From Telmatocola sphagniphila (GTDB lineage Bacteria; Planctomycetota; Planctomycetia; Gemmatales; Gemmataceae): a stretch of 32,000 nt of DNA. The position numbers and the translations under genes were made by a program. The stretch is taken from the NCBI RefSeq assembly GCF_018398935.1, contig NZ_CP074694.1:5130001-5162000 (forward strand), written 5' to 3'. Shown piece after piece: positions 6,290 to 27,826 of the stretch. How positions within the stretch are numbered: position 1 is the first letter of the stretch; every line of letters begins with the position of its first letter. A model generated the notes under the pieces. The model was not told the origin of the DNA and made no database searches. It saw only the letters and a list, made by a program, of their open reading frames with translations.

Positions 6290-9200
6290 ATGCCTAACAC
6301 AAACTCAATCGCACTTCATCCCGAACCCGGCCAGATGGTCAGCGTCCGGTCCCGGAATTGGATGGTCACGGATGTTTCCACCAGCACGCTCCCTCCCGAA
6401 CGCCTCCAAACTGGCCTGGAATCGCCCCAGCATCTCATTACGCTCTCTTCTGTAGAAGATGACGGCTTGGGCGAAGAACTGAACGTTATTTGGGAACTGG
6501 AGCCTGGGGCCAGAGTGGCCGAAAAGGTTGCCCTGCCCGAACCCACGGGATTCGATCCGCCAGACCAGCTTGATGCCTTTCTTGATGCTGTCCGCTGGGG
6601 AGCTTCCTCGTCGGCTGATCTCCGCAACATCCAAGCTCCGTTTAGAGCGGGCATCGACATCGAAGACTACCAGCTTGATCCGGTCGTCCGTGCGATTCAG
6701 ATGCCACGGGTCAACCTCCTGGTTGCTGACGACGTAGGCCTCGGCAAGACCATTGAAGCGGGCATGGTGGCGCTGGAACTCATCATCCGTCACCGCACCC
6801 GAAAGATTCTGATCGTCTGCCCAGCCTCGCTCCAGGTGCAATGGCAGGAGCAGATGCGGGACAAATTCGGCCTCGATTTCCGAATCGTAAACTCCTCGAT
6901 GATGGGAATTCTACGCCGCAGCCGGGGCATCCACGTCAATCCATGGAACCATTTCCCCCGCCTCATCACTAGCATCGACTTTCTCAAACGAGAACGGCCA
7001 CTACGGCTGTTCCGGGAACTTTTGCCGGGGCCGGACGAGCCAGCGTTCCCTCGCAAGTTCGACTTGTTGATCGTGGACGAGGCACATAACTGTGCACCAT
7101 CGGGGGTAGGCCGCTACGCCACGGACTCGATGCGGACCCAGGCCCTAAGACTTCTCGTGCCGCATTTTGAACACAAGCTGTTCCTCACGGCCACGCCACA
7201 CAATGGCTACCCGGAGAGTTTTTCGGCATTGCTCGAACTGCTCGACAATCAGCGCTTTGCTCGAAGTACTCCACTTGATCGAAAGCAGCTCAATGCCGTC
7301 ATGGTCCGACGGATGAAATCAGAATTGCCACCAAAATGGGACGGTTCTCCCCGATTTCCAAAACGGGCTTTAGAGCCTATTGAAGTTCCGTACACCGACG
7401 AAGAACGGGCCGTCCACACTGCTCTCCGGGAATATGCAGAACTCCGGGTCGAGCGATCTCAGGACAACTCCGAGAAGCTGGCCACCGAGTTCGTTCTCAA
7501 GACACTGAAGAAGCGACTTTTCTCTAGCCCGGCTGCGTTCCTGACCACTCTCGATTCTCACGAAAAATCTCTCCGACAAGCCAAGCGTGGCAAGGCCGTC
7601 CGTAAGCCCTCCGTCAGTATCTTGAAGCAGGAACTCGACCGAATTGATGAAGATTACGCCGACGACAACGAGTACGATGAAGCCACGAGCGACGCAGTGA
7701 ATGCCGCCTCATTGCTATTCAGTCAACCATCCGAGCAGGAATTGGCCCTGTTGAAAAAGATGCGGGCCTGGGCGGAAAAAGCATCTGGCCAACTCGATTC
7801 GAAGGTGAATTGTCTGATCGAATGGCTCAACACGCATATTCGTCCCAATAAGAAGTGGAGTCACGAGCGAGTCATCCTTTTCACGGAATACCGGGCTACA
7901 CTGAATTGGCTCAAAGAAGTCCTGGCCCAGCACGGCTTCACCAAAGACGACCGCCTTCTGACCATGTACGGCGGTATGGACCTGGATGAGCGGGAGGAAG
8001 TCAAGAATGCTTTCCAATCTGGACCCGAAGAAAGCAACGTACGGATCCTACTTGCCACCGACGCTGCCGCGGAAGGTTTAAACCTTCAGAACCATTGCTA
8101 CCGACTCATCCATTACGAAATCCCGTGGAACCCAAACCGGCTAGAACAACGTAACGGGCGTATTGACCGTCACGGTCAGAAGGGCTTCCTCACCGCCAAC
8201 GGTGAACGGCAGGTCTTCGTGTATCACTTCGTCGGCCAAGGCTACAGAAATAGACAACAATCGGCGTTCTCCCCCAAAGCATCAGACTTGGACGCCGATC
8301 TGGAGTTCCTGATGCGGGTGGCTCAGAAGGTTGAAACGATCCGGGAAGATCTGGGCAGTTACGGCACAGTGCTGGCTGATGATGTCGAGCAGGCCATGCT
8401 CGGGCGCGGTTACTCGATGCCAGGTGTCAGCCGAGCAGACTCCAAGGTTGAACCGGTCCGCAAGATGCTCAAATTCGAGCGAGACTTGGCCAAGCAAATC
8501 CGCGAACTTCTCGAACAATACCGGGACACACAGCGGGAACTCCGTCTATCGCCCGAGAATATCCAGAAGGTCGTCGAGGTTGGGCTTACTTTGGCCGAGC
8601 AGCCCGCTCTGATTCCCATCAAGCATCCATCGGGTAAGCCAGTATTCCAGCTACCCGCCTTGAAGCACAGTTGGGCCGCCTGCAGAGAAGGCCTGGAGCA
8701 TCCGCACACCGGGGTCGTTCGCCCGATCACGTTCGATCATACGGCTGCTGATGGCCGGGATGATCTCGTACTGATTCACCTGAATCACCGCCTTGTTCAG
8801 ATGAGTCTGCGTTTGCTGCGTGCAGAAGTCTGGTCCGTGAAGGGCCGTAAACGTCTTCACCGAATTACTGCTCGGCTCGTACCGGATTATGCTTTAAATT
8901 CTCCTGCGGTGATAGCACACGCAAGGCTGGTGGTAATCGGGGGCGATAGCCATCGGCTCCACGAAGAGATTATCACAGCGGGCGGGATGCTCAAAGAGGG
9001 CCGGTTATCTCGTCTCAATATCGGCGAGCTGGAAAAGCTTCTGTCGGTGGCCACGAGTGATGAACCTTACGAGCCGATGCAGAAACATCTGCTGAAGCTG
9101 TGGGACAAGTTCACGCCTGGACTTGCCCAGTCCCTTGAAGCTCGCATGAAGGATCGTACCAGCGGTTTACAGAAAAAGCTTGGCGAACGGGCAGAAAAGG

Positions 9201-9475
9201 AAGCCCAGGACATCACAGCTATTTTGCTCGAACTGAAGAAAGCCATCGACACCGAACTGGATGAACCGGAATACCAGCAGCTCTCTCTATTCGAAGATAA
9301 CGAAAAGGATCAGTTTGAACGGAACAAGGACTTCCTGCGGGACAGGTCGAAGGCGATCCCCGCTGAAATCGAACGGGAGACGGCGGCAATCAAGTCCCGC
9401 TATGCTGACCCGCAGCCCCGAATGTTCCCTGTGGCCGTGACGTTCCTCGTCCCTGAGAAGTTAGCAAAAGGATAA
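6290..9475 (+). CDS. drmD: SNF2-family helicase, DISARM class 1 DrmD-like (1061 aa)
   Basis: SNF2 motifs are present: LVADDVGLGKTIEAG (I), LLIVDEAHNC (II), FLTATPHNG (III), and the helicase-C region LLATDAAAEGLNLQ…YEIPWNPNRLEQRNGRIDRHGQK (V/VI). It lies in an operon with drmMI, drmA, drmB and drmC. Confidence 0.8.
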   Translation: MPNTNSIALHPEPGQMVSVRSRNWMVTDVSTSTLPPERLQTGLESPQHLITLSSVEDDGLGEELNVIWELEPGARVAEKVALPEPTGFDPPDQLDAFLDAVRWGASSSADLRNIQAPFRAGIDIEDYQLDPVVRAIQMPRVNLLVADDVGLGKTIEAGMVALELIIRHRTRKILIVCPASLQVQWQEQMRDKFGLDFRIVNSSMMGILRRSRGIHVNPWNHFPRLITSIDFLKRERPLRLFRELLPGPDEPAFPRKFDLLIVDEAHNCAPSGVGRYATDSMRTQALRLLVPHFEHKLFLTATPHNGYPESFSALLELLDNQRFARSTPLDRKQLNAVMVRRMKSELPPKWDGSPRFPKRALEPIEVPYTDEERAVHTALREYAELRVERSQDNSEKLATEFVLKTLKKRLFSSPAAFLTTLDSHEKSLRQAKRGKAVRKPSVSILKQELDRIDEDYADDNEYDEATSDAVNAASLLFSQPSEQELALLKKMRAWAEKASGQLDSKVNCLIEWLNTHIRPNKKWSHERVILFTEYRATLNWLKEVLAQHGFTKDDRLLTMYGGMDLDEREEVKNAFQSGPEESNVRILLATDAAAEGLNLQNHCYRLIHYEIPWNPNRLEQRNGRIDRHGQKGFLTANGERQVFVYHFVGQGYRNRQQSAFSPKASDLDADLEFLMRVAQKVETIREDLGSYGTVLADDVEQAMLGRGYSMPGVSRADSKVEPVRKMLKFERDLAKQIRELLEQYRDTQRELRLSPENIQKVVEVGLTLAEQPALIPIKHPSGKPVFQLPALKHSWAACREGLEHPHTGVVRPITFDHTAADGRDDLVLIHLNHRLVQMSLRLLRAEVWSVKGRKRLHRITARLVPDYALNSPAVIAHARLVVIGGDSHRLHEEIITAGGMLKEGRLSRLNIGELEKLLSVATSDEPYEPMQKHLLKLWDKFTPGLAQSLEARMKDRTSGLQKKLGERAEKEAQDITAILLELKKAIDTELDEPEYQQLSLFEDNEKDQFERNKDFLRDRSKAIPAEIERETAAIKSRYADPQPRMFPVAVTFLVPEKLAKG

Positions 9476-9478
9476 GCG

Positions 9479-11095
9479 ATGACCTCGCCAGATGAGATGC
9501 AGTATTTAATTGACCGCTGCACTTTTCAAAGTGTTAAGGCAGTCCTCTTTAGCAAGACAGATATTGACACTGTCGTACTTGTAAAACCTAATTGTTCGCT
9601 TGAGCAAGTGGCCACCTTTTGCGTCAATAACGATGCTTCCGCTCTGGAACGGCTCAAAGTCAAGACTGACATCGTATTCCTATCTCCTACCAAGCATCCT
9701 CGAACTCCGGTTGATCGTCACTCTTATCTCCTCGACTCAGATTTCGTCGAGGTACTTTTAGTCCCGCCCTTGTATCTAGTTCGTGCGAAACCACACACTC
9801 AGGCGCTGGAAAATGCAATAGCCGTATGTGGTATCACAAGATGCAAGCAGTGTGGTTTTCTTTGTGGCACAGAACTTTCGAGCCAATACTGGCATCCGCC
9901 GGTGAACTATTCAGCAGGTGTGGACGAATACTGCCTTGGATGTTGGCTTGATTGTGGACCAGATGCGACAAGTACCCGTCACCATGTTTTGGTTGAACCG
10001 ACGGGAGACTTGATCGTAGACTACAACGCTATTTTTCATTTAGGCTACCGCTTAGCAATCTTGCCCGTCGCACGCCTTGAACTAGGCTCAGCACCCATCT
10101 GTTTTCCTAATATGATTTGCTTTTATCCCCCTGGCACAATCGACCTAGAGCAATTATTGATTCGCTCGAACAGTGAAGGCACCCTTAGACTGGCTGAGCA
10201 TTCGAGCCTTGCCTCCCAAATAAACGAAAAGGTTCTATCAACCCATCCTTTGGTCGTACTCCCCTGTCGTTTTGACTGGGATGACTTTTGTAATGCAAGC
10301 CATAAAGCGCATCTCGAGTTTATTCGAAGTCTGTCCGAGATCATAGATGATGAGTGCTTCAACTTCATTCGTTACCGTCAGTGCCATATCGAACCAATTG
10401 ATATACTTCCCGGGCGTCCGGGACAGATAAATTCAAACCACATGATGGCCGGTGCATTACTGTTTGACCCAGAGAAAGGTGGACAAATCATTGGAGGAGA
10501 TGCTTTCACTCATATAGTCACACGAGGACTTGGCCTGCCTTTAGAGCCTATTGACTGCACGCAATTTCCAAGATTCGGTGAGGTAGGTAATTTTGTTAAA
10601 CATGTGTTGTCACTTTACTCACAGTTGATAGAAGCCAACAGTAGCACTACAAAGTTCGTTCAATGTCTAACTCTTTTAGAAGTTTTAGCTTCTGCAGAGG
10701 AATCGGAGCGTTTCAAAGCGTTCAAGAATACCAAGAAAAATATAGTTCGTTACGCTACAAATGATCATAACGAATATAAACGAATCATGACTAGGATGAT
10801 TGCTTTAACAGGGCTGAAAGACGAATCCGGAAAAAATATTGGCTACAGAACAGAAATCATTCATTTCGGCAAGCGTCTCGAATCACTAATTCCAAGTATT
10901 AATGAACGAGAGAACTTATTTCGAGAATTGGAAAATTACATAAAATGTGTCCTTGATCACTTAATCGATCACTCGGAAATGTCCTGGGAAGACTACAAAG
11001 TCATTCGAGATTCAATCGGCCCCTATGGGGTGGCCCCGGATACATCTCAGTCATCGACTGCTCCAGCACAGCAGACAGATGACATTCCATTTTGA
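9479..11095 (+). CDS. hypothetical protein (538 aa): CxxC…CxxC zinc ribbon and an alpha-helical C-terminus with an Rx4H motif
   Basis: It starts 3 nt after the drmD stop and ends 36 nt before drmMI. It contains CKQCGFLCG…CLGCWLDC and, near the C-terminus, LTLLEVLASAEE…GYRTEIIHFGKRL. Hand-counted 60-nt samples give about 37-38% GC, against about 57% in a drmD sample. Confidence 0.6.
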   Translation: MTSPDEMQYLIDRCTFQSVKAVLFSKTDIDTVVLVKPNCSLEQVATFCVNNDASALERLKVKTDIVFLSPTKHPRTPVDRHSYLLDSDFVEVLLVPPLYLVRAKPHTQALENAIAVCGITRCKQCGFLCGTELSSQYWHPPVNYSAGVDEYCLGCWLDCGPDATSTRHHVLVEPTGDLIVDYNAIFHLGYRLAILPVARLELGSAPICFPNMICFYPPGTIDLEQLLIRSNSEGTLRLAEHSSLASQINEKVLSTHPLVVLPCRFDWDDFCNASHKAHLEFIRSLSEIIDDECFNFIRYRQCHIEPIDILPGRPGQINSNHMMAGALLFDPEKGGQIIGGDAFTHIVTRGLGLPLEPIDCTQFPRFGEVGNFVKHVLSLYSQLIEANSSTTKFVQCLTLLEVLASAEESERFKAFKNTKKNIVRYATNDHNEYKRIMTRMIALTGLKDESGKNIGYRTEIIHFGKRLESLIPSINERENLFRELENYIKCVLDHLIDHSEMSWEDYKVIRDSIGPYGVAPDTSQSSTAPAQQTDDIPF

Positions 11096-11131
11096 AATTA
11101 AAAAACTGTAATTGTACCGAAGAATACCCTT

Positions 11132-14100
11132 ATGTCCATCACCCGCCACCATAACGAATGGCTGTCGCTCGTGCCGAACTCAGGCCCGTTCCTGAGTTTG
11201 CCGGTGCTGGCACAGGCGTTTCCGCAGGGACTTGATGCCCATGATGCGGATCACGCTCGGCGTCTGCGCATGGCGTTCGATGAATGGGACGACAACCAGT
11301 TGGGCAAACGGCCCGATCCGGGCATTCATCGGGCATGGTTGAAATTTGTATTGGGCGAGACGCTGGGCTACGACGAACATCTCGCCGAGGGGCAGGCGAT
11401 CCCGCAGACCCTCAAAAGCGAAGTCGCCGAATGCGGTGAAACTCTGCGGCCCGATTGGATCGTCAACGACCCCGCCTCGAAGAAGGCTCGGTTGCTCGTT
11501 CAGGTCTATCCACGCTCTCAATCATTAACGAAACCAGTGGCGGGAAAGCGTTGGAGTGCCTGGCCCGATGGTCGGATGATGCAACTGCTGCACGACACGG
11601 GCATCCGGCTTGGTATCGTCACCAATGGCGATCACTGGATGTTGGTGAATGCTCCGAAGAACGAAACGACAGGCTACGTCTCCTGGTACGCAAACCTCTG
11701 GCTTGAGGAACAGATCACGCTGCGGGCCTTCCGCACTTTGCTTGGAGCCGACCGTCTCTTCAGCGTGCCGGAAGACGAAACCCTCGAAGCCCTGCTCGAC
11801 AAGAGCGCTTCCGACCAGCAGGAAGTCACTGACCAGCTTGGGTATCAGGTCCGCAAGGCAGTTGAGGTCTTGATCCAGGCGCTCGACAAGGCGGACCAGG
11901 AACATGGACGGAAGTTGCTGGCCGATGTGAACGAAAAGGTTCTCTACGAGTCGGCCCTCACTGTCATGATGCGACTGGTGTTCCTGTTCTGTGCAGAAGA
12001 ACGGGAACTGCTTCTGCTGGGCGATGAACTCTACGACAAGAACTACGCCGTCAGTACACTGCGCGAACAGCTGCGCGTCACGGCAGATGAATTCGGTGAA
12101 GAAATCCTCGGTCTTCGTTATGACGCCTGGACCCGATTGCTTACAACCTTCCGGGCTGTTTACGCGGGAGCCAAGCACGACCGGCTCAAGCTCCCGGCCT
12201 ATGGCGGCAGTCTGTTCAACCCCGACCGTTTCCCGTTCCTCGAAGGACGCAAGTCCAACACAAGTTGGAAGAACACCGAGGCTACGCCGCTACCTGTCAG
12301 CAATCGCACGGTGTTGCATCTGCTCGAAGCTTTGCAGATCTTGCGGACTAAGATTGGCAATACCACCGAGGCTCGCAAAATCAGTTTCCGGGCGCTCGAC
12401 ATCGAACAGATCGGTCACGTCTACGAGGGCCTGCTCGACCACACCGCCAAGCGTGCGACCGAGCCGGTGTTGGGATTGGCGGGAACACGGGACAAGGAAC
12501 CCGAAATCGCCCTGGCCGAACTTGAGAAGATCGCCGCCAAGGGAGAGAAGGAACTGCTCAAATTCCTGAAGGATGAATCGGGCCGCTCAGAATCGGCGAT
12601 CAAGAAGGGCCTGAACGCCGAGATTGACGATCAGCTTGCCAGTCGCTTCCGTACCGCCTGTCAGGACTCGGACCTCTGGAAGCGGGTGAAGCCGTTCGCC
12701 GGGTTAGTGAGGCTCGATGATGTGGATTACCCGGTTGTCATCACCACGGGCAGTGTCTTCGTCACCGCTGGGACCGACCGACGCAGCAGCGGCACGCATT
12801 ACACTCCCAAGAGCCTCACCGAACCCATCGTGCAATACACGCTGGAGCCGCTGGTTTACGTCGGCCCCGCTGAAGGATTGCCCAAGGACCAGTGGAAGCT
12901 CCGTTCGGCCAAAGAACTGCTTGCCCTGAAGATATGCGACATGGCATGTGGCTCCGGGGCCTTTTTGGTCCAGGCGTGCCGATACATGGCGGCTCGACTG
13001 CTCGAAGCCTGGGACGCCGTTCAACGGGCCAACCCTGGAATAGTCCACATCACGCCTGAAGGCGAAACCTCAACGGGCAAGCCCGGTGAGATGCTGATCC
13101 CCGACGACCCCGACGAGCGCCAAACCTACGCTCTGCGGATCGTGGCCCAGCGTTGCTTGTACGGTGTGGACAAGAACCCGCTGGCAGCGGAAATGGCCAA
13201 GTTGTCGCTCTGGTTGTTGACTCTCGCCAAGAACAAGCCGTTCGAGTTCCTGGACCATGCTATCCGATGCGGCGATTCACTCGTCGGCATTCACAACCTC
13301 GAACAGTTGCGGAATTTCAGTCTCGATGGCAAGGGGGATGATCGGCGAGTGGTCCTGGCTTACATGGAGGACAAAATCCAGGAGGCTATCGCCCTACGTC
13401 GCCAGATTACCGAGATGCAGGCTCATACTGCCGAGGATGTCGAGGTTCAGGACCGGATGTTACGAGAGGCGAACGAAAAGATCGACCGGCTCAAGTGTGC
13501 CGCCGACATGCTGATTTCAGCCGAGTTCGCAGCCGGCTCCGCTCCCGACAAGCGATCCGCCAGGGACAATGCAGCGATCAAAGTGGCCGTTCATTTCGGC
13601 GACAGCGAGTTGCCAACATTTCGCCGAGAGGCACAGAAGGCACTTGCCGGTCAGGTGACGTTCCACTGGCCGCTAGAATTCCCCGAAGTCATGGTTGAGC
13701 GGGGTGGGTTCGATGCGTTTGTCGGGAATCCTGCTTATATGGGCGGTCAGAAACTAACGGGAGCCTTCGGCACCCCATACCGTGATTTCTTGGTTTGTCG
13801 AGTTGCAGATGGTCGCAAGGGGCTTGTCGATTTGTGCGCCTACTTCGTACTCCGCTCACACATTCTGCTTAAATCGATAGGGACTTGTGGCTTTGTTTCA
13901 ACCAGCGCCATTGCGGAAGGCGACACCAGAAGTGTTTGCTTGGACTGGCTCTGCAATAATGGATGGGTCATATTCCGGGCGAATCAACGCATGGCATGGC
14001 CCGGCGCTGCCAGCGTAACGTATACACCCATTTGGCTGACCTCCAGGCATTGGTGCGGGGCTTGCCATTTAGAGGACATACCTGTTGAGAGCATCACACC

Positions 14101-19610: not shown

Positions 19611-22600
19611 GTACAGCGCCACTGAAACCCACCGTCTCGCCCCTCCAACTTCGGGATGAACTCGAAACGATGGTCCTAAAGGAACTGCTTGGCCCCGGTA
19701 GCTTTGACGAGGAACTTATCGAGTCTCCCGGAACTCGGTATTTCGTGGGCGTCCTGGCTCCCCGTAAGCGTGCCAAGGCAGAGGAGGTACTCGCCAAGGC
19801 GGCCGCTGCTCCTGCCGGAGACGATGAAGAAGGAGACACGGACCTTGAGATGCTCGATGGTGATGAACTCGCTCTCGGCGGCAAAGATTCTTCGCAAGAC
19901 GGCACGACGGATCTGGCTCCGGCTCAGGACAAAGCTCTGATCCCGTCGTCGTTCGGCATGACCTTTTCTCTAAACATTGAGGCCAAAGAACTGGAACTGA
20001 CGGCGACCTGGGGCCAGTACGTCAAACAGTTCAGCGAATATCTCGTTAGCGAGAAGACCGGCAATCCTCGGAAAGTGTGGAAGCGATTTCCTCGTGGGGG
20101 CAGGCACTGCCTGAAACTGAAGGAAGGGCCCATCTCACCAATCCCGCTCGATAAAAATTGTCCCGAGGTAGTTGTCCAGGGCCTTATCCGCAAACGCAAA
20201 GATCACTGGTGTGTCACGGTATTCCTGGTCAATGAGCAGCAGGAGCCTGAGAAGCTGAAGGACACTGCCTGGATATTTCAACCGGAACTGATGGCTGAGG
20301 GAATAGATGGCGCGGCAGTCATCCACAAACGGCACACTATCCTGGAACTCACTGGCACGGACCCGAGAGTGAAGGCCGAGAACGATCAGCTGGCGATGCT
20401 CTATCGTCGGCACATCGAGTTCGCCGTGGGGCATGGCATTGGCGTACATGTCGATATCTCACCTGATCCGAATTACGCTTTCAGTGTCCGCACTAAGGTG
20501 ATACCAAGTTACGAGATCCCCAAGACGACCCCACCCCGACCCGAAGACGCCGAGATCAACCCGTCCTTCGCCAAGTTGCAGGGCATGGTCCTTGATATGA
20601 AGGTGTTGGCCGAGGCCAGCCCGAAGCAATATGGGTCGAAGCTGAAACCGCTGGTCGAAGCCTATCAAGATTGGATCGACCGAGAAGAAAAACGGATTAA
20701 TGATCCCATCGAAGGACTGGCGAGCTTCAAGAATCCCGCCCAGCAAGCCATTGCCAAATGCCGCACGACGCTCAAGCGAATCGAAGAAGGGCTGGACTTG
20801 CTCGACAAGGACGAGAAAGCTGCTCAGGCGTTCTCCTTCATGAACCGAGCCATGTGGCTCCAGCGAACCCACTCCCTCTTTGCAGAGCGTGTACGCCGCG
20901 GCGACGATAAGCCCGACATGGGGGCCATCGACATTTCCGAGAACCGCAGTTGGTATCCGTTCCAGCTTGCGTTTGTACTGCTAAATTTACCGGGGATCAC
21001 AAAGTTCGATCACCCCGACCGCAGCGAATCCCCAGAAGCTGTGGCGGATCTGCTCTGGTTTCCAACCGGTGGCGGTAAAACTGAAGCTTACCTGGGCCTG
21101 ACCGCCTACACGCTGGGACTGCGACGGCTGCAAGGGATAGTCGAAGGTCGTTCCGGAGAAAACGGCATCACGGTGTTGATGCGGTACACTTTAAGACTTC
21201 TAACTCTCCAGCAATTTCAACGAGCCACTACTTTAATCTGTGCGTGTGAGGATATTCGACGCGAAGCTGCTAGTAATGGTGATCACCGCTGGGGAGAGAC
21301 TCCATTCCGAATCGGTTTATGGGTCGGAGGTGGAACCACACCTAACTGGACCAATGACAGCGATGAAGCTATTAAACTCGCTCGCAGTCCAAGACGTTCC
21401 AGCTCTATCGGGGGTACGGGATCTCCGAATCAACTGACCAATTGCCCCTGGTGCGGTACGAAGATTGATCCCGGTAAACACATCATCGTGGAGAAGTACT
21501 CCACCGGTACTTGCCGCACGTTGATTTATTGTGGAGCGTCGGAAGATAAATGCATTTTCAATAGGAAGTTAGCCGCAGGTGAAGGCCTGCCAGTAATAGT
21601 CGTGGACGAGGAAATCTATCGTCGCCTGCCATCGCTATTGATTACTACCGTGGACAAGTTCGCACAGATGCCGTGGAACGGCTCTGTCCAGATGCTCTTC
21701 GGTCAAGTGGACGGATATTGTGAACGACACGGCTTCCGGTCGCCGGGATTGGCTGATTGGTCTGAAGAATTGGAAGTTAACGCAGTCCACCGGGGAAAGG
21801 GACAAGAGAAGTCAGCCAAGGTTCTACCTCATACTCGCTTGCGACCACCAGACCTAATCATCCAGGACGAGTTACATCTCATTAGTGGTCCTCTCGGTAC
21901 TTTAGTCGGGCTCTATGAGACGGCCATCGATCGACTCTGCACTTGGGAAGTGAAGGGTAAGAAAATCCGTCCAAAGGTTGTGGCATCGACGGCAACGATC
22001 CGTAATGCGAAGGACCAATTGCACGCTCTGTTTCTTCGCCGGCTGGAGACATTCCCACCGAACGGATTAGACATCAGAGACAATTTCTTCTCCCTACAGC
22101 GGCCCTCAAACGAGAAGACACCCGGGCGCAAGTATATAGGCGTGTGTGCCCCTGGACGCCGTTTGAAGGCAGCACTCATTCGGGTATATGTTGCGTTCCT
22201 ATCTGCAGGTCAGGTGTTGTTCGAAAAGTATGGCCTGGATGCCGACCCCTGGATGACTCTCGTGGGATACTTTAACAGCCTACGAGAACTCGGTGGCATG
22301 AAGCGCCTAGTCGATGACGACGTCCGCACTCGACTTCGGAGAATGGCGGATCGCGGATTAGCGAAGCGAATTCTTCATACTCCTGATGCCGTAAAAGAAC
22401 TTACTTCCCGATTGGGTTCCGGAGCGATCCCCGAAATTCTCGATCTTCTGGAGAGTCGCTTCGACCCGGCACAATTCGATCAGTTTAAGCAAGGCAAGGC
22501 AGGAGGCGAATTCGTCTCCCGTCCAATTGACGTATTGATGGCAACGAACATGATCTCGGTTGGGGTGGACGTGCCTAGGCTGGGATTGATGGTTACTGCC

Positions 22601-23224
22601 GGTCAGCCGAAAACAACAGCAGAATATATTCAGGCTACCAGCCGTGTTGGGCGTAAGCATCCTGGTCTAGTCTGCACAGTCTACAACTGGGCAAGACCAA
22701 GGGACTTATCCCACTACGAAACATTCGAACATTATCACTCCACTTTTTACAAACATGTAGAAGCCCTATCAGTTACTCCATTCTCGGCTGGAGCAACTTC
22801 TCGCGGACTGGCCGCGTTGCTGATTTCATTAGTCCGTCAGCCAGGCTTCGAGTTTAACTCAAACGACAAGGCCATGCAGATGGCAACCCAAAGAAACCAT
22901 CAATATGTCACGGACGCGATAGAAGCGATCACCAGTCGAGCTGAATTGATTGCCGGTGTCCCAGCCGCTGATGAAGTCCGGCAGCAACTCAAACGAAAGA
23001 TGGACCTTTGGCAGAAACGTGCACAACGTACGGCCCAAGGCAATCAGCTGGGATATGAGACGAAAAAAGATGGTGTGACGATTGGCTTGCTGCGTAAGCC
23101 CAGTATTGAACCATGGGACGAATTTACTTGCTTAAACTCCCTCCGGGATGTTGAACCGACTGCCAATTTGATTCTTGATGATTTTGGCATGGATGACGAG
23201 CCCGATGACGGAGAAACGCCATGA
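19607..23224 (+). CDS. drmA: DISARM DrmA-like superfamily-2 helicase (~1205 aa)
   Basis: Helicase motifs are present: LWFPTGGGKTEAYLG (I), LIIQDELHLISGPLG (II), and LMATNMISVGVDVPRLGLMVTAGQPKTTAEYIQATSRVGR (V/VI). There is an inserted zinc ribbon, CPWCG…YCGASEDKC. Its ATG at 19607 overlaps the upstream stop (ATGA), and a DUF1998 gene follows immediately. Confidence 0.8.
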   Translation: MSTAPLKPTVSPLQLRDELETMVLKELLGPGSFDEELIESPGTRYFVGVLAPRKRAKAEEVLAKAAAAPAGDDEEGDTDLEMLDGDELALGGKDSSQDGTTDLAPAQDKALIPSSFGMTFSLNIEAKELELTATWGQYVKQFSEYLVSEKTGNPRKVWKRFPRGGRHCLKLKEGPISPIPLDKNCPEVVVQGLIRKRKDHWCVTVFLVNEQQEPEKLKDTAWIFQPELMAEGIDGAAVIHKRHTILELTGTDPRVKAENDQLAMLYRRHIEFAVGHGIGVHVDISPDPNYAFSVRTKVIPSYEIPKTTPPRPEDAEINPSFAKLQGMVLDMKVLAEASPKQYGSKLKPLVEAYQDWIDREEKRINDPIEGLASFKNPAQQAIAKCRTTLKRIEEGLDLLDKDEKAAQAFSFMNRAMWLQRTHSLFAERVRRGDDKPDMGAIDISENRSWYPFQLAFVLLNLPGITKFDHPDRSESPEAVADLLWFPTGGGKTEAYLGLTAYTLGLRRLQGIVEGRSGENGITVLMRYTLRLLTLQQFQRATTLICACEDIRREAASNGDHRWGETPFRIGLWVGGGTTPNWTNDSDEAIKLARSPRRSSSIGGTGSPNQLTNCPWCGTKIDPGKHIIVEKYSTGTCRTLIYCGASEDKCIFNRKLAAGEGLPVIVVDEEIYRRLPSLLITTVDKFAQMPWNGSVQMLFGQVDGYCERHGFRSPGLADWSEELEVNAVHRGKGQEKSAKVLPHTRLRPPDLIIQDELHLISGPLGTLVGLYETAIDRLCTWEVKGKKIRPKVVASTATIRNAKDQLHALFLRRLETFPPNGLDIRDNFFSLQRPSNEKTPGRKYIGVCAPGRRLKAALIRVYVAFLSAGQVLFEKYGLDADPWMTLVGYFNSLRELGGMKRLVDDDVRTRLRRMADRGLAKRILHTPDAVKELTSRLGSGAIPEILDLLESRFDPAQFDQFKQGKAGGEFVSRPIDVLMATNMISVGVDVPRLGLMVTAGQPKTTAEYIQATSRVGRKHPGLVCTVYNWARPRDLSHYETFEHYHSTFYKHVEALSVTPFSAGATSRGLAALLISLVRQPGFEFNSNDKAMQMATQRNHQYVTDAIEAITSRAELIAGVPAADEVRQQLKRKMDLWQKRAQRTAQGNQLGYETKKDGVTIGLLRKPSIEPWDEFTCLNSLRDVEPTANLILDDFGMDDEPDDGETP

Positions 23225-25089
23225 ACAATAATGATTCTAAACGCTGCAAAGTAGGCGAACTTCGTCCTAGTCAAGCACTTACTACCTTCGGTATCGGCTC
23301 GATTATTGACCTGCCAAATTTGTCTGTAATGGTAATGGGTCTGGAAGATTGGTCGTATAAGGACACCGTGGAGATTGGCGAACAACGGCTTCTGGCTTCG
23401 GTAAAAGAAATGCTGGGGCATCAAGTCAAGTCCCTTAGGTCGGCTCCGGTCGTCCCTGATACCTATCAAGTGAATCAGTTTGATTCCGCGACGCTCGTGG
23501 GTATTCCCGTTGCTCCTTTTCCTCGTTGGATGGTATGCCCATATTGCAGACGACTTGCTCCTCTGGGGAGTGGTCTGTTCAAGTTAGAGACACCCTACCG
23601 TACCGATCAGATTCGCTACATACATGCGAACTGTACAAAGCCCGGCAAGTCGCCTACTATCGTGCCCGCCCGCTTTATCGTGGCTTGTAAGAATGGTCAT
23701 TTCGATGATTTTCCCTGGCGGGATTTCGTCCATCGTGGACCCAACAATTGTAAGGGTGGTCTGAAGCTCCTCGAAAACTCAGCCACTGGAGAAGCCGCAA
23801 GTATCTTCGTACAGTGCGAAGGTGCAAATTGCGGAGCTACTCGCCCGATGTCCGATGCTTTTAAAATGGATCTGATGGCGATGCCAGTCTGCAAGGCACG
23901 TCGTCCTCATCTCAGAGATCACGATGATGCCGGATGTAAGACACCCAATGGTCAAGACATGCGAATGGAGCCAATGCTCCAAGGTGCATCGAACTCCTGG
24001 TTCGGGCTCACACTTTCGGCGTTGGCGATTCCCCAAGCGTCCGGAAAACTGAAACAACTCGTTGAAGATAACTGGACGACTTTGGGGAAAGTACAGAGTG
24101 AACAAAACATTGAACTCTTGATGTCTATCTCGCAGTTACGTGACCTTTCCGAGTATACTGCCGCTGAAATCTGGCAGGCAGTCCAAGCCAAAAAAACCGA
24201 AGTTCCGGAAGAAGATGTTGAACCGACCGATATCAAGACGCCCGAATGGGAAGTCTTTATCAACCCCGACTCCTCGGAAAAAGGTCGGGACTTTCAGATT
24301 CGGATCGCCGCTCCTCCAAAAAGATACGCCAAGTACTTTGAGAAAATCGTCTTGGCCGAGCGATTGCGAGAAGTGAGAGCATTAGTCGGGTTTACTCGAA
24401 TCGAATCGCCCAGCGATTATGACAACCCTACAGCTTTTCCTGAGAATCAACGGGTTCCGCTTTCTCGCACGCAACCAACCTGGGTACCTGCATCAGAGAT
24501 TCGGGGCGAAGGTCTGTTTTTTCAATTCAAGGAAGACGTAATCCAAAAGTGGGTCAAGAAAGCTAAGAGCTTGGACGCCGTATTTATGGAAGCTCACCAA
24601 CGGTGGCGTAGCGCACGTAAGTTGGAACCGCCACAAGAATTTTACCCCGGGATTCGCTACGTTTTGCTGCACTCATTTGCACACGCATTAATTCGTCAAT
24701 TGGCAGTTGAATGCGGTTATACAACGGCTTCCCTTAGAGAGCGGATTTATTCAACGAATTCCAAAAAGCCCGAAGTTGAGATGGCAGGAGTTTTGATTTA
24801 CACAGCTGCACCGGACAGTGAAGGCACACTTGGTGGTCTGGTGTCTCTCGGCAAACCGGAAACGTTAGAACGGCATCTAGATCAGGCTCTGGACAATATG
24901 CGGCTGTGTGCCAGCGATCCGCTCTGTGCCGAGCATCATCCGTATCGGGATGGCAACACGCTGCATGCCGCCTCGTGCCATGCCTGCTTATTCGCTCCAG
25001 AAACGTCCTGCGAGCGCGGCAACAAATATCTGGACCGAGCAGTACTTGTTTCCACTGTCGAACGCAGCGACTTGGCATTCTTCGAGTAA
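23221..25089 (+). CDS. drmB: DUF1998 (MrfA-type Zn-binding domain) protein, DISARM DrmB-like (622 aa)
   Basis: The Cys clusters are MVCPYCRRL, ACKNGHFDDFPW and VQCEGANCG. The characteristic C-terminus is LCASDPLCAEHHP…LHAASCHACLFAPETSCERGNKYLDR. Its ATG overlaps the drmA stop (ATGA, 23221-23224). Confidence 0.8.
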   Translation: MNNNDSKRCKVGELRPSQALTTFGIGSIIDLPNLSVMVMGLEDWSYKDTVEIGEQRLLASVKEMLGHQVKSLRSAPVVPDTYQVNQFDSATLVGIPVAPFPRWMVCPYCRRLAPLGSGLFKLETPYRTDQIRYIHANCTKPGKSPTIVPARFIVACKNGHFDDFPWRDFVHRGPNNCKGGLKLLENSATGEAASIFVQCEGANCGATRPMSDAFKMDLMAMPVCKARRPHLRDHDDAGCKTPNGQDMRMEPMLQGASNSWFGLTLSALAIPQASGKLKQLVEDNWTTLGKVQSEQNIELLMSISQLRDLSEYTAAEIWQAVQAKKTEVPEEDVEPTDIKTPEWEVFINPDSSEKGRDFQIRIAAPPKRYAKYFEKIVLAERLREVRALVGFTRIESPSDYDNPTAFPENQRVPLSRTQPTWVPASEIRGEGLFFQFKEDVIQKWVKKAKSLDAVFMEAHQRWRSARKLEPPQEFYPGIRYVLLHSFAHALIRQLAVECGYTTASLRERIYSTNSKKPEVEMAGVLIYTAAPDSEGTLGGLVSLGKPETLERHLDQALDNMRLCASDPLCAEHHPYRDGNTLHAASCHACLFAPETSCERGNKYLDRAVLVSTVERSDLAFFE

Positions 25090-25093
25090 TCCC

Positions 25094-25897
25094 ATGTACC
25101 ACGAACATCTCCAAATTGGAGCAGCGGCAGCTCAATTGGCTGATCATCTACCCCATTCCGTGATGATCGTGGTGGCAAGTGCTGTGTCGCTGCATAGGGG
25201 AATGGATCGGTCAGCGGCAAGGCAGGCAATCCTTCAAAGCCTGCCGACCCCGGACTTCCGTGATGCGACCGCTGACTTTCTCGACCATTGGCATAATCAT
25301 GCCGCCAACGTCGGAGCCGAGGCAGTCGCCGTGGCGCTCGTGACAGCAGCCAAGAGTGAATACGATCACAGGCGCGAAGAGACGGTCGAACTCGTATGGA
25401 CCGGCCCGGAACCCGCCGAGACTCGGTTCCGTCATACCGAGCAAGCCATCCTTGAGGTCATAAATACGGCGGAAACGCGACTGACGGTCGTCAGCTATGC
25501 GGTCTACCGGATTCCCCGCATCCGTGAGGCCCTGGTCGCCGCAGCCAACAGAGGTGTCAGTATCCGGCTGATCGTGGAGACTCCTAACAGGATCGATGGG
25601 CAGAGCGAATATGATTGCCTCATGGCTCTGGGCAACAACGTGGCTTCGGCCTGCTCGGTCTACTACTGGCCCCAGGAGAACCGGGCCAAGGACGACAACG
25701 GCAAGATCGGCATTCTTCATGTCAAATGTGCCGTAGCCGATGGACACCGAATGTTTCTGTCAAGCGCCAACTTCACCGAGTATGCCTTCACCATCAATAT
25801 GGAGTTAGGGTTACTCGTGACGGGCGGTAAGTTGCCTGGGGAAGTGGAGAGGCATTTTGAGAGGCTAATTGCCGATGGAACGTTAGTAAAGGTTTAG
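25094..25897 (+). CDS. drmC: phospholipase D-family (single HKD) nuclease, DISARM DrmC-like (267 aa)
   Basis: The HxK(x)4D motif with downstream SxN is LHVKCAVADGHRMFLSSANFT. The start is placed at the ATG 4 nt after the drmB stop. The ORF-track start at 24908 would overlap drmB by 182 nt. Confidence 0.75.
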   Translation: MYHEHLQIGAAAAQLADHLPHSVMIVVASAVSLHRGMDRSAARQAILQSLPTPDFRDATADFLDHWHNHAANVGAEAVAVALVTAAKSEYDHRREETVELVWTGPEPAETRFRHTEQAILEVINTAETRLTVVSYAVYRIPRIREALVAAANRGVSIRLIVETPNRIDGQSEYDCLMALGNNVASACSVYYWPQENRAKDDNGKIGILHVKCAVADGHRMFLSSANFTEYAFTINMELGLLVTGGKLPGEVERHFERLIADGTLVKV

Positions 25898-26033
25898 TCA
25901 TTAATGCTCATACGCTTCGACTTACCATTTAGGAGTTTTTTCCCTTATTAACAAATTGGATTAAGTATCAGGCGAAATAAAATTTGCCAAAACTTAGATC
26001 TGGCTCGCGTCGGCAACTCAATTTTTAACTGCG

Positions 26034-27564: not shown

Positions 27565-27692
27565 GTCTGACCTACCCCAATTCTAAATGAACTCGCCGGA
27601 TCAGTTTGATTGGGCTAGGAACCGAAATTTTAACGCATTGCGATTCGACGAGTAGCAACCGCTGGGAATGCTCAAAATAATTTGCACTCCTA

Positions 27693-27796: not shown

Positions 27797-27826
27797 TTAA
27801 CGAAGACAAAACATGCGAGGTGCAAA

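Follow-up and report, generated by a model that had tools for sequence, protein, structure and literature searches.

The window analyzed here is a 32,000-nucleotide stretch of the Telmatocola sphagniphila genome. Between positions 6290 and 25897 it carries eight intact open reading frames (ORFs), all on the plus strand and none with an internal stop, which form a 19.6-kb operon in the order drmD, orf538, drmMI, ATPase, AlbA_2, drmA, drmB, drmC. Coordinates, strand and gene order agree with an earlier, sequence-only reading. Neighboring genes are separated by 3 nt (drmD/orf538), 36 nt (orf538/drmMI) or 4 nt (drmB/drmC), or they overlap: by GTGA at drmMI/ATPase, where the ATPase starts at GTG 15709; by ATGA at ATPase/AlbA_2 (17733) and at AlbA_2/drmA (in-frame ATG 19607); and by 4 nt at drmA/drmB. 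The longest ORF for drmA begins at GTG 19595, and its 1205 aa are counted from ATG 19607. The operon and its surroundings comprise the following features.

5696–5787, no strand: attL, left copy of the 92-bp direct repeat bounding an integrative element, 95.7% identical to 31101–31192
6290–9475, plus: drmD, SNF2-family helicase, 1061 aa (NF038317 DISARM_DrmD, 1332.6 bits, cut-off 610; Pfam SNF2-rel_dom, Helicase_C; DEAH at aa 263)
9479–11095, plus: orf538, embedded gene from a rare family; a C-terminal core of ~350 aa is conserved and preceded by an N-terminal extension of ~175 aa containing CxxC...CxxC
11132–15712, plus: drmMI, Eco57I/MmeI-type N6-adenine methyltransferase, 1526 aa (PDLC02643 DrmMI, 1743 bits; Pfam Eco57I, MmeI_Mtase, MmeI_TRD)
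15206–15601, plus: C-terminal domain (CTD) of DrmMI, aa 1359–1490, about 133 aa, putative ATPase docking domain (domain HMM; co-evolution with the ATPase)
15709–17736, plus: ABC ATPase, SMC/Rad50-like, LmuB/YydD clade, 675 aa (start GTG 15709), in translational coupling with drmMI (PADLOC LmuB PDLC03859, E=1.9e-26, full length)
17733–19610, plus: prokaryotic Schlafen (pSlfn), 625 aa, with AlbA_2/Slfn nuclease domain, HATPase_c_4 and C-terminal wHTH; ATGA overlaps at both ends (Pfam SLFN_AlbA_2 2e-13, HATPase_c_4 3e-15)
19607–23224, plus: drmA, DISARM helicase, 1205 aa (NF038325 DISARM_DrmAS, 1395 bits, cut-off 950; DELH at aa 754)
23221–25089, plus: drmB, DUF1998/MZB zinc-binding partner of DrmA, 622 aa (NF038324, 695 bits, cut-off 240; Pfam MZB 3.8e-11; CHAC...C at aa 586)
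25094–25897, plus: drmC, PLD-family nuclease, 267 aa, one HKD motif (NF038319 DISARM_DrmC_I, 218.6 bits, cut-off 133; PLDc_2 6.5e-20; HxKx4D at aa 209)
26034–26756, minus: Imm_superinfect, island backbone gene (Pfam)
26874–27323, plus: ASCH, island backbone gene (Pfam)
27668–28057, plus: HTH_17, excisionase-like, island backbone gene (Pfam)
28264–29352, plus: AAA_25, island backbone gene (Pfam)
29585–31204, plus: tyrosine integrase (Pfam Phage_integrase 6.9e-13)
31101–31192 (within 31101–31224, minus): attR, 92-bp repeat overlapping the 3′ end of tRNA-Asp
31149–31224, minus: tRNA-Asp (ARAGORN)

Assignments of the DISARM genes were checked against three HMM libraries (Pfam, NCBIfam and PADLOC). 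Four of the five products exceed NCBIfam equivalog or subfamily cut-offs, and DrmMI is identified by its PADLOC model, whose match is restricted to aa 2–1349. The sequence-only reading had named all five components from motifs, and its DELH, CHAC...C and single HxKx4D motifs were located in DrmA, DrmB and DrmC. Its DUF1998 gene matches both Pfam MZB/DUF1998 and NF038324, and its PLD nuclease matches PLDc_2 and NF038319. PADLOC gave neither PglZ nor BrxC, two markers that the same reading had not seen. By this gene content, the operon is a complete class 1 DISARM, an anti-phage system that resembles restriction-modification. The edges of the surrounding island are the two copies of the 92-bp repeat, and the integrase adjoins tRNA-Asp. 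The DISARM operon is the main cargo of this ∼25.5-kb integrative element inserted at tRNA-Asp.

DrmMI has motif I as CGSGAF (aa 606) and an atypical motif IV, GNPAY (aa 865–869), whereas 50 of 56 methyltransferases checked have GNPP[FYW] at this position. The methyltransferase, and hence the whole system, may be impaired through NPAY instead of NPPF/Y/W.

An SMC-like ATPase and the tail of DrmMI

The ATPase gene belongs to a family with 784 representatives at E≤1e-30, and 534 relatives were found among 185,579 species genomes. Walker A (GHGNGKTT), Walker B/D-loop (LLIHDSPREAD) and signature (SLSGE) motifs are conserved family-wide. The AF2 model (pLDDT 85) consists of a head, a long antiparallel coiled coil and a second head, and Foldseek ranks YydD first (9e-18), then LmuB (6e-16), followed by Rad50, SMC and JetC. 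The PADLOC models for DndD and PbeC do not match the protein, and its match to the embedded candidate PDC-M68B in the same library is confined to the P-loop region. No effector domain is present in the ATPase, and no equivalent of the kleisin-like LmuC was found.

The position of the gene is highly recurrent. In 80 of the 84 ATPase loci with upstream sequence, the immediately preceding gene in the same orientation encodes a DrmMI/ArmB-type methyltransferase or another protein with the CTD, with a gap of at most 27 nt or an overlap, and this holds for homologs down to 27% identity. Such adjacency is seen at 10 loci of DISARM type and at 45 that are ARMADA-type-I-like. A Mesorhizobium AR02 plasmid that is also in Table S1 of Bell et al. 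corroborates the ARMADA label. Gene calls in related loci are longest ORFs labeled by phmmer, and three carriers labeled as methyltransferases turned out to be non-methyltransferase CTD carriers. The architectural variant proposed in the sequence-only reading is real and recurrent, with ten DISARM-type loci. In four of these (L002, L007, L008 and L011), drmA follows the ATPase with no gene between, so the ATPase does not need a downstream effector gene of its own.

The CTD lies within a ∼190-aa C-terminal extension of DrmMI and has no match in Pfam or PADLOC. A domain HMM finds it in 77 of 82 ATPase-linked carriers versus none of six ATPase-less plasmid class 1 DrmMIs (Fisher p=1.6e-6), although the loci are not phylogenetically independent and the Fisher and Mantel p-values are thus optimistic. 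Besides the five missed carriers, an ATPase-linked plasmid methyltransferase (L092) escapes the HMM. The missed carriers and the Mesorhizobium methyltransferase, which is not hit either, all belong to a divergent proteobacterial subgroup. DrmMI homologs are present on 112 plasmids versus 8 with the ATPase. For the best 25 of the 112 plasmid records matching DrmMI (≤54% identity), the alignment starts near aa 1 and stops near aa 1333. Conversely, a scan of ∼990 ORFs showed the ATPase directly after 73 of 75 CTD-bearing ORFs.

Mirror-tree comparisons indicate that the CTD follows the ATPase (r=0.90) and not its own protein body (CTD versus methyltransferase aa 1–900, r=0.30, rho −0.01). The methyltransferase body follows SNF2 closely (r=0.98), whereas ATPase distances correlate weakly with both (r about 0.37). 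At one locus (L045), the SNF2 protein and methyltransferase body are DISARM-like, but the CTD and ATPase are nearest to those of verrucomicrobial ARMADA-type loci. At L007 and L098 the C-terminal module of the methyltransferase is a separate ORF that overlaps the ATPase start, and elsewhere the CTD is fused to type I HsdS (L015) or to an AbiLi/AriA-like ATPase (L055, L064). Because the CTD co-evolves with the ATPase rather than with its own protein body and is also fused elsewhere, the two constitute a portable module. They appear to be one evolutionary unit that is horizontally exchanged, and from co-evolution and adjacency, which are indirect evidence, we infer that the ATPase docks on the CTD of DrmMI. 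No description of this add-on module was found in the literature searched.

Cargo genes in the operon

The sequence-only reading held that the DISARM core is interrupted twice by extra genes. This is correct for orf538 and the Schlafen gene, but not for the ATPase; the three extra genes are not equivalent to one another. Recurrent adjacency to the methyltransferase and co-evolution with its CTD argue that the ATPase is not a chance interruption. Genes embedded within DISARM have been published previously (Payne et al. 2024, bioRxiv 10.1101/2024.01.29.577857).

The orf538 product has no match in Pfam, NCBIfam or PADLOC, and its AF2 model (pLDDT 80) has no fold match in PDB or BFVD. The gene has a GC content of 44.5%, compared to 56% for the flanking genes, and the 23 homologs found sit outside DISARM. 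Given this foreign composition and distribution, orf538 is an interruption, an AT-rich recent insertion that represents separate cargo at an insertion hotspot.

The Schlafen protein retains an intact Ex4ExK catalytic motif (E14...E19.K21), in the definition of a study that describes this class (PMC13056530). A Schlafen gene lies downstream from the ATPase in seven loci from distant phyla, with an intervening gene in four of them, and is missing from ∼79 of 86 ATPase loci. Other occupants of the slot after the ATPase include Drt1a, RmrA-like, RES, TIR, GmrSD and HNH genes, as well as 67 singleton genes. In ATPase-less DISARM loci, the drmMI/drmA junction likewise holds unrelated genes, for example a PARIS-like pair (Trichormus) or small genes (Sinorhizobium). 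This junction is thus an insertion hotspot even without the ATPase, and component and cargo are not separable there by position alone. As one among many cargoes at the hotspot, the Schlafen gene is an interruption, recurrent and separate from the DISARM core. Between the window and a second locus (L083), the Schlafens are 51% identical and the ATPases 30% identical, which points to separate histories. The Schlafen is most likely an independent RNA-cleaving back-up effector. Of seven pSlfn constructs tested previously, protection came only from the DUF262- and Ig-like fusions (PMC13056530).

Possible roles of the ATPase

We consider it probable that in this class 1 DISARM on a tRNA-Asp island the CTD and ATPase form a sixth component and the Schlafen gene and orf538 are separate cargo at two insertion hotspots. 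DrmD is the SNF2 helicase, and DrmMI the adenine methyltransferase that would mark self DNA. The DrmA–DrmB helicase complex, known to be activated by 5′-overhang DNA (PMC9142583), would engage foreign DNA, and DrmC is the PLD nuclease. The operon belongs to a recurrent DISARM sub-lineage with a CTD-tailed methyltransferase and an overlapping ATPase gene. In R-M-like systems, the module has been added at the 3′ end of whichever gene encodes the subunit for DNA recognition or modification. Its hosts are DrmMI (DISARM), ArmB (ARMADA type I), HsdS (type I R-M) and a type IIG-like fragment, as well as an AbiLi-like ATPase. An ATPase dimer docked on the CTD could, by analogy with Lamassu LmuB and Rad50, bind DNA as a sensor or clamp and so link the recognition of targets by the methyltransferase to restriction. 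The restriction arm would be DrmAB/DrmC in the window and, in many ARMADA-type loci, an HNH nuclease. Lamassu senses DNA, and its effector LmuA is sequestered by LmuB/LmuC (bioRxiv 2025.03.14.643221, 2025.04.02.646746).

It is possible, though unlikely, that the ATPase is instead a PrrC-like sentinel that is bound through the CTD to the methyltransferase or specificity subunit and gives DISARM no help normally. Phage anti-restriction attack on that subunit would change the state of the ATPase and elicit a second-line response by Schlafen, TIR, RES or HNH neighbors. The docking step is common to this proposal and to the sixth-component reading, which differ only in the role of the ATPase. Precedents are PrrC, embedded almost exclusively in type I R-M, and ABC ATPases, AriA of PARIS among them, that respond to anti-restriction proteins as their trigger (Payne et al. 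2024, bioRxiv 10.1101/2024.01.29.577857). The targets of anti-restriction proteins (methyltransferase/TRD, HsdS) are precisely the subunits to which the CTD is fused, and toxic effectors are frequent directly after the ATPase. However, many loci have no effector gene following the ATPase, and several downstream genes are complete stand-alone systems (Drt1a, GmrSD).

A role confined to modification is doubtful. The ATPase would aid the methyltransferase, for example in DNA loading or scanning, and take no part in sensing or restriction, in parallel with DndD in phosphorothioation and with BrxC, which PglX requires for methylation. Dnd and Pbe modification modules have SMC-like ABC ATPases as integral parts, and the modification or specificity subunit is the only component to which the ATPase is linked. 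Dnd and Pbe ATPases are also listed among defense ABC ATPases (Payne et al. 2024, bioRxiv 10.1101/2024.01.29.577857). Against this proposal, most methyltransferases of class 1 DISARM and ARMADA function without the ATPase, as the plasmid counts illustrate; neither PADLOC model for these modules matches; and the CTD has a further fusion partner, an AbiLi-like ATPase, that is not a modification enzyme.

It is improbable that the ATPase and Schlafen constitute a self-contained two-gene, Lamassu-like abortive-infection system, with an SMC-like sensor and an RNase effector, nested in DISARM. The ATPase is LmuB-like by sequence and fold, LmuB is paired with many different effectors in Lamassu (bioRxiv 10.1101/2024.01.29.577857, 2025.03.14.643221, 2025.04.02.646746), the two genes overlap by 4 nt, a Schlafen gene recurs downstream from the ATPase across distant phyla, and the catalytic motif of the Schlafen in the window is intact. 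Yet most ATPase loci have no Schlafen, an LmuC homolog is absent, the histories of the two genes differ, and the CTD is left unexplained. Moreover, the Slfn-HisKinase-HTH arrangement is the second commonest stand-alone pSlfn type (19.2% of pSlfns; PMC13056530).

The view in the sequence-only reading, of a canonical five-gene system with three unrelated hitch-hikers and an ATPase without functional tie, is very improbable: DISARM, BREX and type I R-M systems commonly harbor foreign genes (Payne et al. 2024, bioRxiv 10.1101/2024.01.29.577857), unrelated genes occupy the drmMI/drmA junction in ATPase-less loci too, and the weak correlations with methyltransferase body and SNF2 indicate a horizontally mobile ATPase, but the same adjacency spans two architectures, a dedicated CTD is on the upstream protein only where the ATPase is present, the two co-evolve, and the ATPase lacks an effector domain and, in four DISARM-type loci, a following effector gene.

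Comparison with known systems

Relative to class 1 DISARM (Ofir et al. 2018; Serratia sp. SCBI, bioRxiv 10.1101/2021.12.28.474362; DrmAB structure, PMC9142583), the window has all five genes in canonical relative order in one operon. It differs by the three extra genes, by the C-terminal extension and NPAY motif IV of DrmMI, and by the SMC-like ATPase translationally coupled to drmMI; no ATPase is mentioned in the class 1 DISARM paper searched. ARMADA type I (Bell et al. 2025, bioRxiv 10.1101/2025.09.15.676423) likewise has an SNF2 helicase and a PglX-like methyltransferase, and the same CTD and ATPase module directly follows the methyltransferase in the 45 loci; no ATPase is named in the main text of that paper or in the supplements examined. 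ARMADA type I has a fused YprA-Vsr helicase-nuclease, whereas the window has split DrmA/DrmB and the PLD nuclease DrmC.

The Schlafen gene resembles pSlfns (Nat Microbiol 2026, PMC13056530) in its Slfn/AlbA_2 domain with Ex4ExK, HATPase_c_4 (HisKinase-like) and HTH, but it is embedded inside a DISARM operon by 4-nt overlaps. Same-strand nesting in a multi-gene system is shared with embedded defense genes and PrrC guards, among which ABC ATPases form the most frequent class (Payne et al. 2024, bioRxiv 10.1101/2024.01.29.577857). Here, in contrast, the host gene itself bears a matching fused domain, and the ATPase has no fused or obligatory neighboring effector. Proteobacterial ARMADA-type relatives resemble Septu (PtuA ABC ATPase with PtuB HNH) in that a gene for an HNH nuclease of ∼250 aa comes after that of the ATPase, in many cases overlapping it by 4 nt. 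The window has no HNH gene, and PtuA-containing retron complexes are among the weaker fold matches of its ATPase (ranks 36–49), which is closer to LmuB than to PtuA.

Lamassu LmuB and Bacillus subtilis YydD, both ABC-3C SMC-like ATPases, match the window ATPase best both by HMM (PDLC03859) and by fold (9a6c for YydD; 9uxh and 9hqu for LmuB). They share with it the head-coiled coil-head layout and a Walker B motif of the 'D-[SQ]-P' type, and LmuB chains are 12–15% identical to the ATPase in structural alignments. Lamassu has LmuC and LmuA, whereas the window has neither. The Lamassu partner is a free effector; the putative partner of the window ATPase is a domain that a methyltransferase or specificity subunit carries as a fusion.

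The class 1 DISARM operon and its island

Eight intact ORFs, all transcribed in one direction, fill positions 6290-25897 in the order drmD, orf538, drmMI, ATPase, AlbA_2 (Schlafen), drmA, drmB and drmC. Three junctions are gaps, of 3, 36 and 4 nt, and the other four are 4-nt overlaps, including a GTGA overlap between drmMI and the ATPase gene and an ATGA overlap at each end of the AlbA_2 gene. The sequence-only reading had described intact, co-directional ORFs with short gaps or overlaps that include all five class 1 DISARM components, and both points hold. The genes drmA, drmB, drmC, drmD and drmMI are all present, as judged with three independent HMM libraries (PADLOC, Pfam and NCBIfam). The DUF1998 and PLD domains proposed for the last two ORFs were assigned, and the motifs quoted for DrmA, DrmB and DrmC were each located.

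6290-9475, plus strand: drmD, SNF2-like helicase upstream of the core (NF038317, 1332.6 bits; cut-off 610)
11132-15712, plus strand: drmMI, N6-adenine methyltransferase (PADLOC PDLC02643, 1743 bits; Pfam Eco57I/MmeI_Mtase/MmeI_TRD)
19595/19607-23224, plus strand: drmA, helicase (pfam00271; NF038325, 1395 bits, cut-off 950; Helicase_C; DELH at aa 754)
23221-25089, plus strand: drmB, DUF1998/MZB (pfam09369; NF038324, 695 bits, cut-off 240; PF09369, 3.8e-11; CHAC...C)
25094-25897, plus strand: drmC, PLD nuclease (pfam13091; NF038319, 218.6 bits, cut-off 133; PLDc_2, 6.5e-20; single HKD, HxKx4D)

Other system assignments were rejected for the window. ARMADA type I does not apply, since there is no fused YprA-Vsr, the helicase and DUF1998 proteins are split and both match DISARM equivalogs, and the nuclease is the PLD protein DrmC. 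Lamassu is dismissed because none of the eight ORFs has a PADLOC LmuC match, and the neighboring DrmMI and Schlafen proteins match no LmuA model. BREX markers had been reported absent, and PADLOC indeed returned no PglZ or BrxC/PglY match, leaving only weak similarity of DrmMI to PglX and of DrmD to BrxH. A search of the whole locus against the E. coli genome gave no match, and promoter and terminator scans of the sequence gave matches at the level of shuffled sequence.

DrmD, DrmA, DrmB and DrmC are 77-85% identical to their Gemmata obscuriglobus counterparts, in keeping with a planctomycete as the probable host. A swap of the DrmMI and ATPase cassette relative to Gemmata (63-67% versus 77-85% identity for the core) was considered and rejected, since sliding identity reveals ordinary divergence of the target recognition domain (TRD) and the coiled coil.

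Catalytic motif IV of the window DrmMI reads GNPAY (13733-13735, corresponding to aa 868). The form GNPP[F/Y/W] occurs in 50 of the 56 related methyltransferases checked, and it is kept in all DISARM-type relatives and in six plasmid DrmMIs from loci that lack the ATPase. Because the closest full-length relative (70% identical) reads GNPPF, the change from Pro to Ala is recent. DrmMI is a predicted methyltransferase, and its GNPAY motif puts activity in doubt, a point that needs checking.

The operon lies within an element that has the features of a tRNA-targeting island: a tyrosine integrase gene beside a tRNA gene, and direct repeats that contain the tRNA 3' end.

5696-5787 and 31101-31192: 92-bp direct repeat, copies 95.7% identical, including the 3' 44 nt of tRNA-Asp
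29585-31204: tyrosine integrase
31149-31224, minus strand: tRNA-Asp

The repeats bracket ~25.5 kb, in which the genes other than the operon encode Imm_superinfect, ASCH, HTH_17 excisionase-like and AAA_25 proteins and the integrase. The bracketing repeats, the integrase and the tRNA-Asp gene thus identify an integrative island at tRNA-Asp, with the DISARM operon as its main cargo. The integrase ORF overlaps the tRNA-Asp gene by 56 nt and its 3' end contains the right repeat, so excision or integration would recombine inside the end of the integrase frame. Outside the island are a DDE_Tnp_1_4 transposase gene (2364-4088, plus strand) and a minus-strand pair encoding a DUF4288 protein (4273-4665) and a dual-specificity-phosphatase-like protein (4674-5051).

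orf538 and the Schlafen gene

The core had been described as interrupted twice by extra genes. This description stands for orf538, a foreign insertion, and for the Schlafen gene, which is cargo, but not for the ATPase gene, which is tied to the methyltransferase and its C-terminal domain.

orf538 (9479-11095) is a foreign gene that was inserted recently. Its GC content, 44.5% (GC3 42%), compares with ~56% (GC3 63-65%) for the flanking drmD and drmMI, and the position between drmD and drmMI in related loci is empty or holds other, unrelated small ORFs. Among 5.8 billion proteins there are 23 homologs, most of them ~350 aa in length and matching the C-terminal core. Two full-length homologs reside outside DISARM, one beside QatABCD and one amid CHAT, TIR and HD-CE genes, and a short-form homolog is found in an ordinary neighborhood. 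Neither Pfam, NCBIfam nor PADLOC contains a family for orf538, permissive Pfam searches with each of the 23 family members yielded noise only, and comparison of the AF2 model (pLDDT 80) with PDB and BFVD revealed no similar fold. An invariant GYRTxIVHxGxRxE motif, with R-x4-H spacing (R457-x4-H462), lies within the all-helical C-terminal region. A HEPN-like RNase was set aside as speculation, the evidence for it being the R457-x4-H462 motif and two Foldseek hits at E>2.

The Schlafen gene belongs to a known class.

17733-19610: AlbA_2/Schlafen gene, SLFN_AlbA_2 (PF04326, 2e-13), HATPase_c_4 and a C-terminal winged HTH

Its product carries the catalytic motif Ex4(E/D)xK as E14-x4-E19-x-K21. This is the motif described for Schlafen ribonucleases, some prokaryotic members of which can defend against phage (PMC13056530, 2026 Nature Microbiology). 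The "HisKinase-HTH" composition accounts for 19.2% of prokaryotic Schlafens, and among seven constructs tested only the DUF262 and Ig-like fusions were protective (PMC13056530). In the window gene, a 33-nt tandem repeat (19244-19328; 2.6 copies, 80% matches) encodes HGE(S/A)TPDT(D/N)SG units within the linker ahead of the winged HTH.

Seven loci of distant lineages have an AlbA_2/Schlafen gene downstream from the ATPase gene. E14 and E19 do not vary among them, and another gene separates the Schlafen and ATPase genes in four of these loci. When the window is compared with the related locus L083, the Schlafens are 51% identical and the ATPases 30%. Across loci the slot after the ATPase gene holds Drt1a, RmrA-like HTH-M78, HEPN/RES, TIR, GmrSD, DUF4062, DUF3800 and HNH genes and 67 singleton genes. 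The drmMI/drmA junction of class 1 DISARM loci that lack the ATPase also houses foreign genes. These varied contents, the separate identities of ATPase and Schlafen, and the foreign genes at ATPase-less junctions therefore indicate that the Schlafen gene is recurrent cargo at an insertion hotspot. It is most likely an independent back-up effector.

In the ATPase-less class 1 DISARM locus L096 (Trichormus variabilis plasmid C, 9008-10991), the drmMI/drmA junction is occupied by a PARIS-like pair, consisting of a 352-aa ATP-binding protein whose gene overlaps drmMI by 4 nt and a DUF4435 protein. In the plasmid-borne class 1 DISARM locus L091 (Oscillatoria pOSC7112.01, 22103-26063), dnaN, dnaX and holA, which encode the beta, gamma/tau and delta subunits of DNA polymerase III, follow drmB in place of drmC, and an XisH/XisI pair lies on the opposite strand between drmMI and drmA.

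The ATPase and the C-terminal domain of DrmMI

The gene after drmMI encodes an intact ABC ATPase with a Walker A sequence GHGNGKTT, a Q-loop-like SRDQ, a signature SLSGE and a Walker B/D-loop LLIHDSPREAD, all common to the whole family.

15709-17736: ATPase gene, coupled to drmMI by the GTGA overlap
15206-15601: C-terminal domain (CTD) of DrmMI, ~133 aa (aa 1359-1490), defined by an iterated HMM

In the AF2 model (pLDDT 85), a ~300-residue antiparallel coiled coil separates two head halves. Foldseek matches are led by B. subtilis YydD (9e-18) and LmuB of solved Lamassu complexes (6e-16 to 1e-14), with Rad50, SMC, MukB and JetC ranking next; a sequence-profile search against PDB returned coiled-coil noise only. 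The best PADLOC match is also Lamassu LmuB (PDLC03859, 1.9e-26, full length), a similarity at the level of family only. Relatives number 534 in a scan of 185,579 species genomes and span many phyla, 784 representatives reach E<=1e-30 in an exhaustive profile search, and the nearest named homologs are from Planctomycetaceae.

The ATPase is tied to METHYLTRANSFERASE, that is, to an upstream DrmMI-type methyltransferase or other CTD carrier. In context look-ups of homologs with 27-68% identity, the ATPase gene was directly 3' of a DrmMI-type methyltransferase gene in all cases. A Gemmata class 1 DISARM locus reads drmD-drmMI-ATPase-drmABC with no further extras, and another class 1 locus has a TIR and a DUF3644-like gene after the ATPase gene. 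Homolog loci outside DISARM have the order fused-YprA helicase, SNF2, methyltransferase, ATPase. Such loci have the ARMADA type I architecture (Bell et al. 2025, bioRxiv 10.1101/2025.09.15.676423), and Table S1 of that paper includes the YprA helicase of a Mesorhizobium AR02 plasmid on which the ATPase is also found.

Adjacency was counted in the 80 best ATPase loci plus loci fetched earlier, with genes in related loci taken as the longest ORFs. Upstream sequence is available for 84 loci. In 80 of these, the gene immediately before the ATPase gene has the same orientation, encodes a methyltransferase or other CTD carrier, and either overlaps the ATPase gene or ends <=27 nt from it. By type, 10 ATPase loci are DISARM-like and 45 ARMADA-like, and in four of the DISARM-type loci the ATPase gene directly precedes drmA. 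In two ARMADA-type loci, L035 (8967-9962) and L054 (8977-9984), related ORFs of ~331-335 aa separate the gene for the CTD-bearing methyltransferase from that for the ATPase; these ORFs are 37.5% identical to each other and have no similarity elsewhere in the set.

PADLOC DrmMI models span aa 2-1349 of the 1526-aa window protein. In the best 25 of 112 plasmid homolog records (identity up to 54%), every alignment is confined to about aa 1-1333, and the loci that were inspected are of the canonical class 1 DISARM type and lack the ATPase. An HMM iterated from the last 187 residues of the window DrmMI was run on the fetched loci. It matches 77 of 82 ATPase-linked carriers, at the extreme C-terminus, and gives no hit in the six ATPase-less DrmMIs, even with the threshold relaxed to E<=10 (Fisher p=1.6e-6, for phylogenetically related loci and uncorrected for phylogeny). 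The missed carriers fall within a divergent proteobacterial subgroup, and the ATPase-linked methyltransferase of L092, a Mesorhizobium plasmid locus, was missed too. The CTD has no match in Pfam or PADLOC; tblastn of the CTD alone against plasmids and a word-indexed homology search were too insensitive. Among ~990 ORFs from all fetched loci, 75 bear the CTD; the ATPase gene directly follows 73 of these, and one ORF intervenes in the other two.

Pairwise distances were compared across 42 complete loci. The methyltransferase body and SNF2 distances correlate at r=0.98, and the ATPase correlates with either at r of about 0.37. The ATPase does not co-diverge with the whole methyltransferase (r=0.37-0.41), and a CTD-specific distance test was therefore made. 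ATPase and CTD distances correlate at r=0.90 (rho 0.68); the CTD correlates with aa 1-900 of its own protein at r=0.30 (rho -0.01) and with the 300 residues immediately upstream at r=0.21. In L045, a DISARM-type locus from Opitutaceae, SNF2 and the methyltransferase body are closest to DISARM relatives, and the CTD and ATPase are both closest to verrucomicrobial ARMADA-type loci. This co-evolution and the affinities of L045 therefore indicate that CTD and ATPase form one module that moves between systems, with a breakpoint inside the methyltransferase gene.

The CTD also occurs on other proteins. In Kolteria novifilia (L015, CP036279, 3099-17298) it ends a type I specificity subunit (HsdR-HsdM-HsdS::CTD-ATPase), and a type IIG-like C-terminal fragment carries it in L076. 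In Oleiharenicola lentus (L055, 8054-12028) and an Opitutales genome (L064, 8031-12028), an AbiLi/AriA-like AAA_21 ABC ATPase is fused to the CTD and followed by the SMC-like ATPase. These two genes form a stand-alone pair in both loci, and that of L055 adjoins a divergently oriented E2/E1/JAB (ubiquitin-like conjugation) gene. Two large helicase/nuclease genes after the L015 ATPase gene match PADLOC candidates PDC-S37, MkoA/MkoC and Hhe. In two further loci, L007 (9072-10004) and L098 (284-1171), the C-terminal ~300 aa of DrmMI, comprising the end of the canonical enzyme and the CTD, is a separate ORF whose stop overlaps the ATPase start. The upstream L007 methyltransferase (1504 aa) aligns to the window DrmMI only as far as ~aa 1177, and its C-terminus is different. 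This arrangement may represent a split or rearranged specificity region.

Possible function and relation to known systems

The DISARM core presumably works as published, with DrmMI marking self DNA. DrmAB is subject to auto-inhibition and becomes active on 5'-overhang DNA (PMC9142583), and DrmC was dispensable in the Serratia class 1 system (bioRxiv 10.1101/2021.12.28.474362). The case for the ATPase as an add-on to this core rests on adjacency, translational coupling, a carrier-specific domain and co-evolution at the level of that domain. We infer that an ATPase dimer would dock on the CTD. By analogy with LmuB, the ATPase might then serve as a DNA sensor or clamp that couples recognition by the methyltransferase or TRD to restriction. 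Two alternatives are live, in which the ATPase would be a guard like PrrC or a modification helper like DndD or BrxC. Docking is common to the sensor, guard and helper models.

We tentatively propose, with confidence a little short of even, that the CTD and the LmuB/YydD-like ATPase are an undescribed, horizontally mobile accessory module. Such a module would plug an SMC-like DNA sensor onto the recognition or modification subunit of R-M-like systems (DISARM DrmMI, ARMADA ArmB, type I HsdS and a type IIG-like fragment). If true, there would be a physical link between epigenetic discrimination of self from non-self and SMC-type DNA sensing, and new DISARM and ARMADA subtypes would exist with an extra component that is essential or broadens specificity. 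A methyltransferase hard-wired to an SMC/Rad50-like ATPase in a recurrent sub-lineage offers a concrete, experimentally accessible way into the coupling between recognition and action in DISARM. The occurrence of one module on both ARMADA and type I R-M subunits suggests a general route for upgrading R-M-like systems. The operon also displays three grades of extra gene side by side, from an integral add-on through recurrent cargo to a fresh insertion.

Both class 1 DISARM and gene embedding within it have been described before (Payne et al. 2024, bioRxiv 10.1101/2024.01.29.577857). There is a fair chance that the CTD and ATPase module is a genuinely undescribed accessory of R-M-like systems. 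Open-access text (figures aside) on class 1 DISARM, ARMADA including supplements, embedding and modularity networks describes neither the CTD nor an SMC-like ATPase coupled to DrmMI or ArmB; the modularity-network paper simply notes an SMC-like ATPase as a highly connected node. Annotation pipelines label the ATPase "chromosome segregation protein SMC" or "hypothetical" and defense-system HMMs end before the CTD, and therefore such loci are scored as plain DISARM or ARMADA with unexplained insertions.

Two known systems offer comparisons. In Lamassu, which senses DNA, LmuB and LmuC sequester a domain of the effector LmuA (bioRxiv 2025.03.14.643221, 2025.04.02.646746). In many proteobacterial ARMADA-type loci, an HNH nuclease gene (~250 aa) follows the ATPase gene, often with a 4-nt overlap. 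Examples are L092 (Mesorhizobium pMspAR07b, 11058-13690), L068, L079, L080 and L084, and where Drt1a, GmrSD or Schlafen genes are present in loci of this type, they lie between the ATPase and HNH genes. The pairing of an ATPase with an HNH nuclease in Septu resembles this order.
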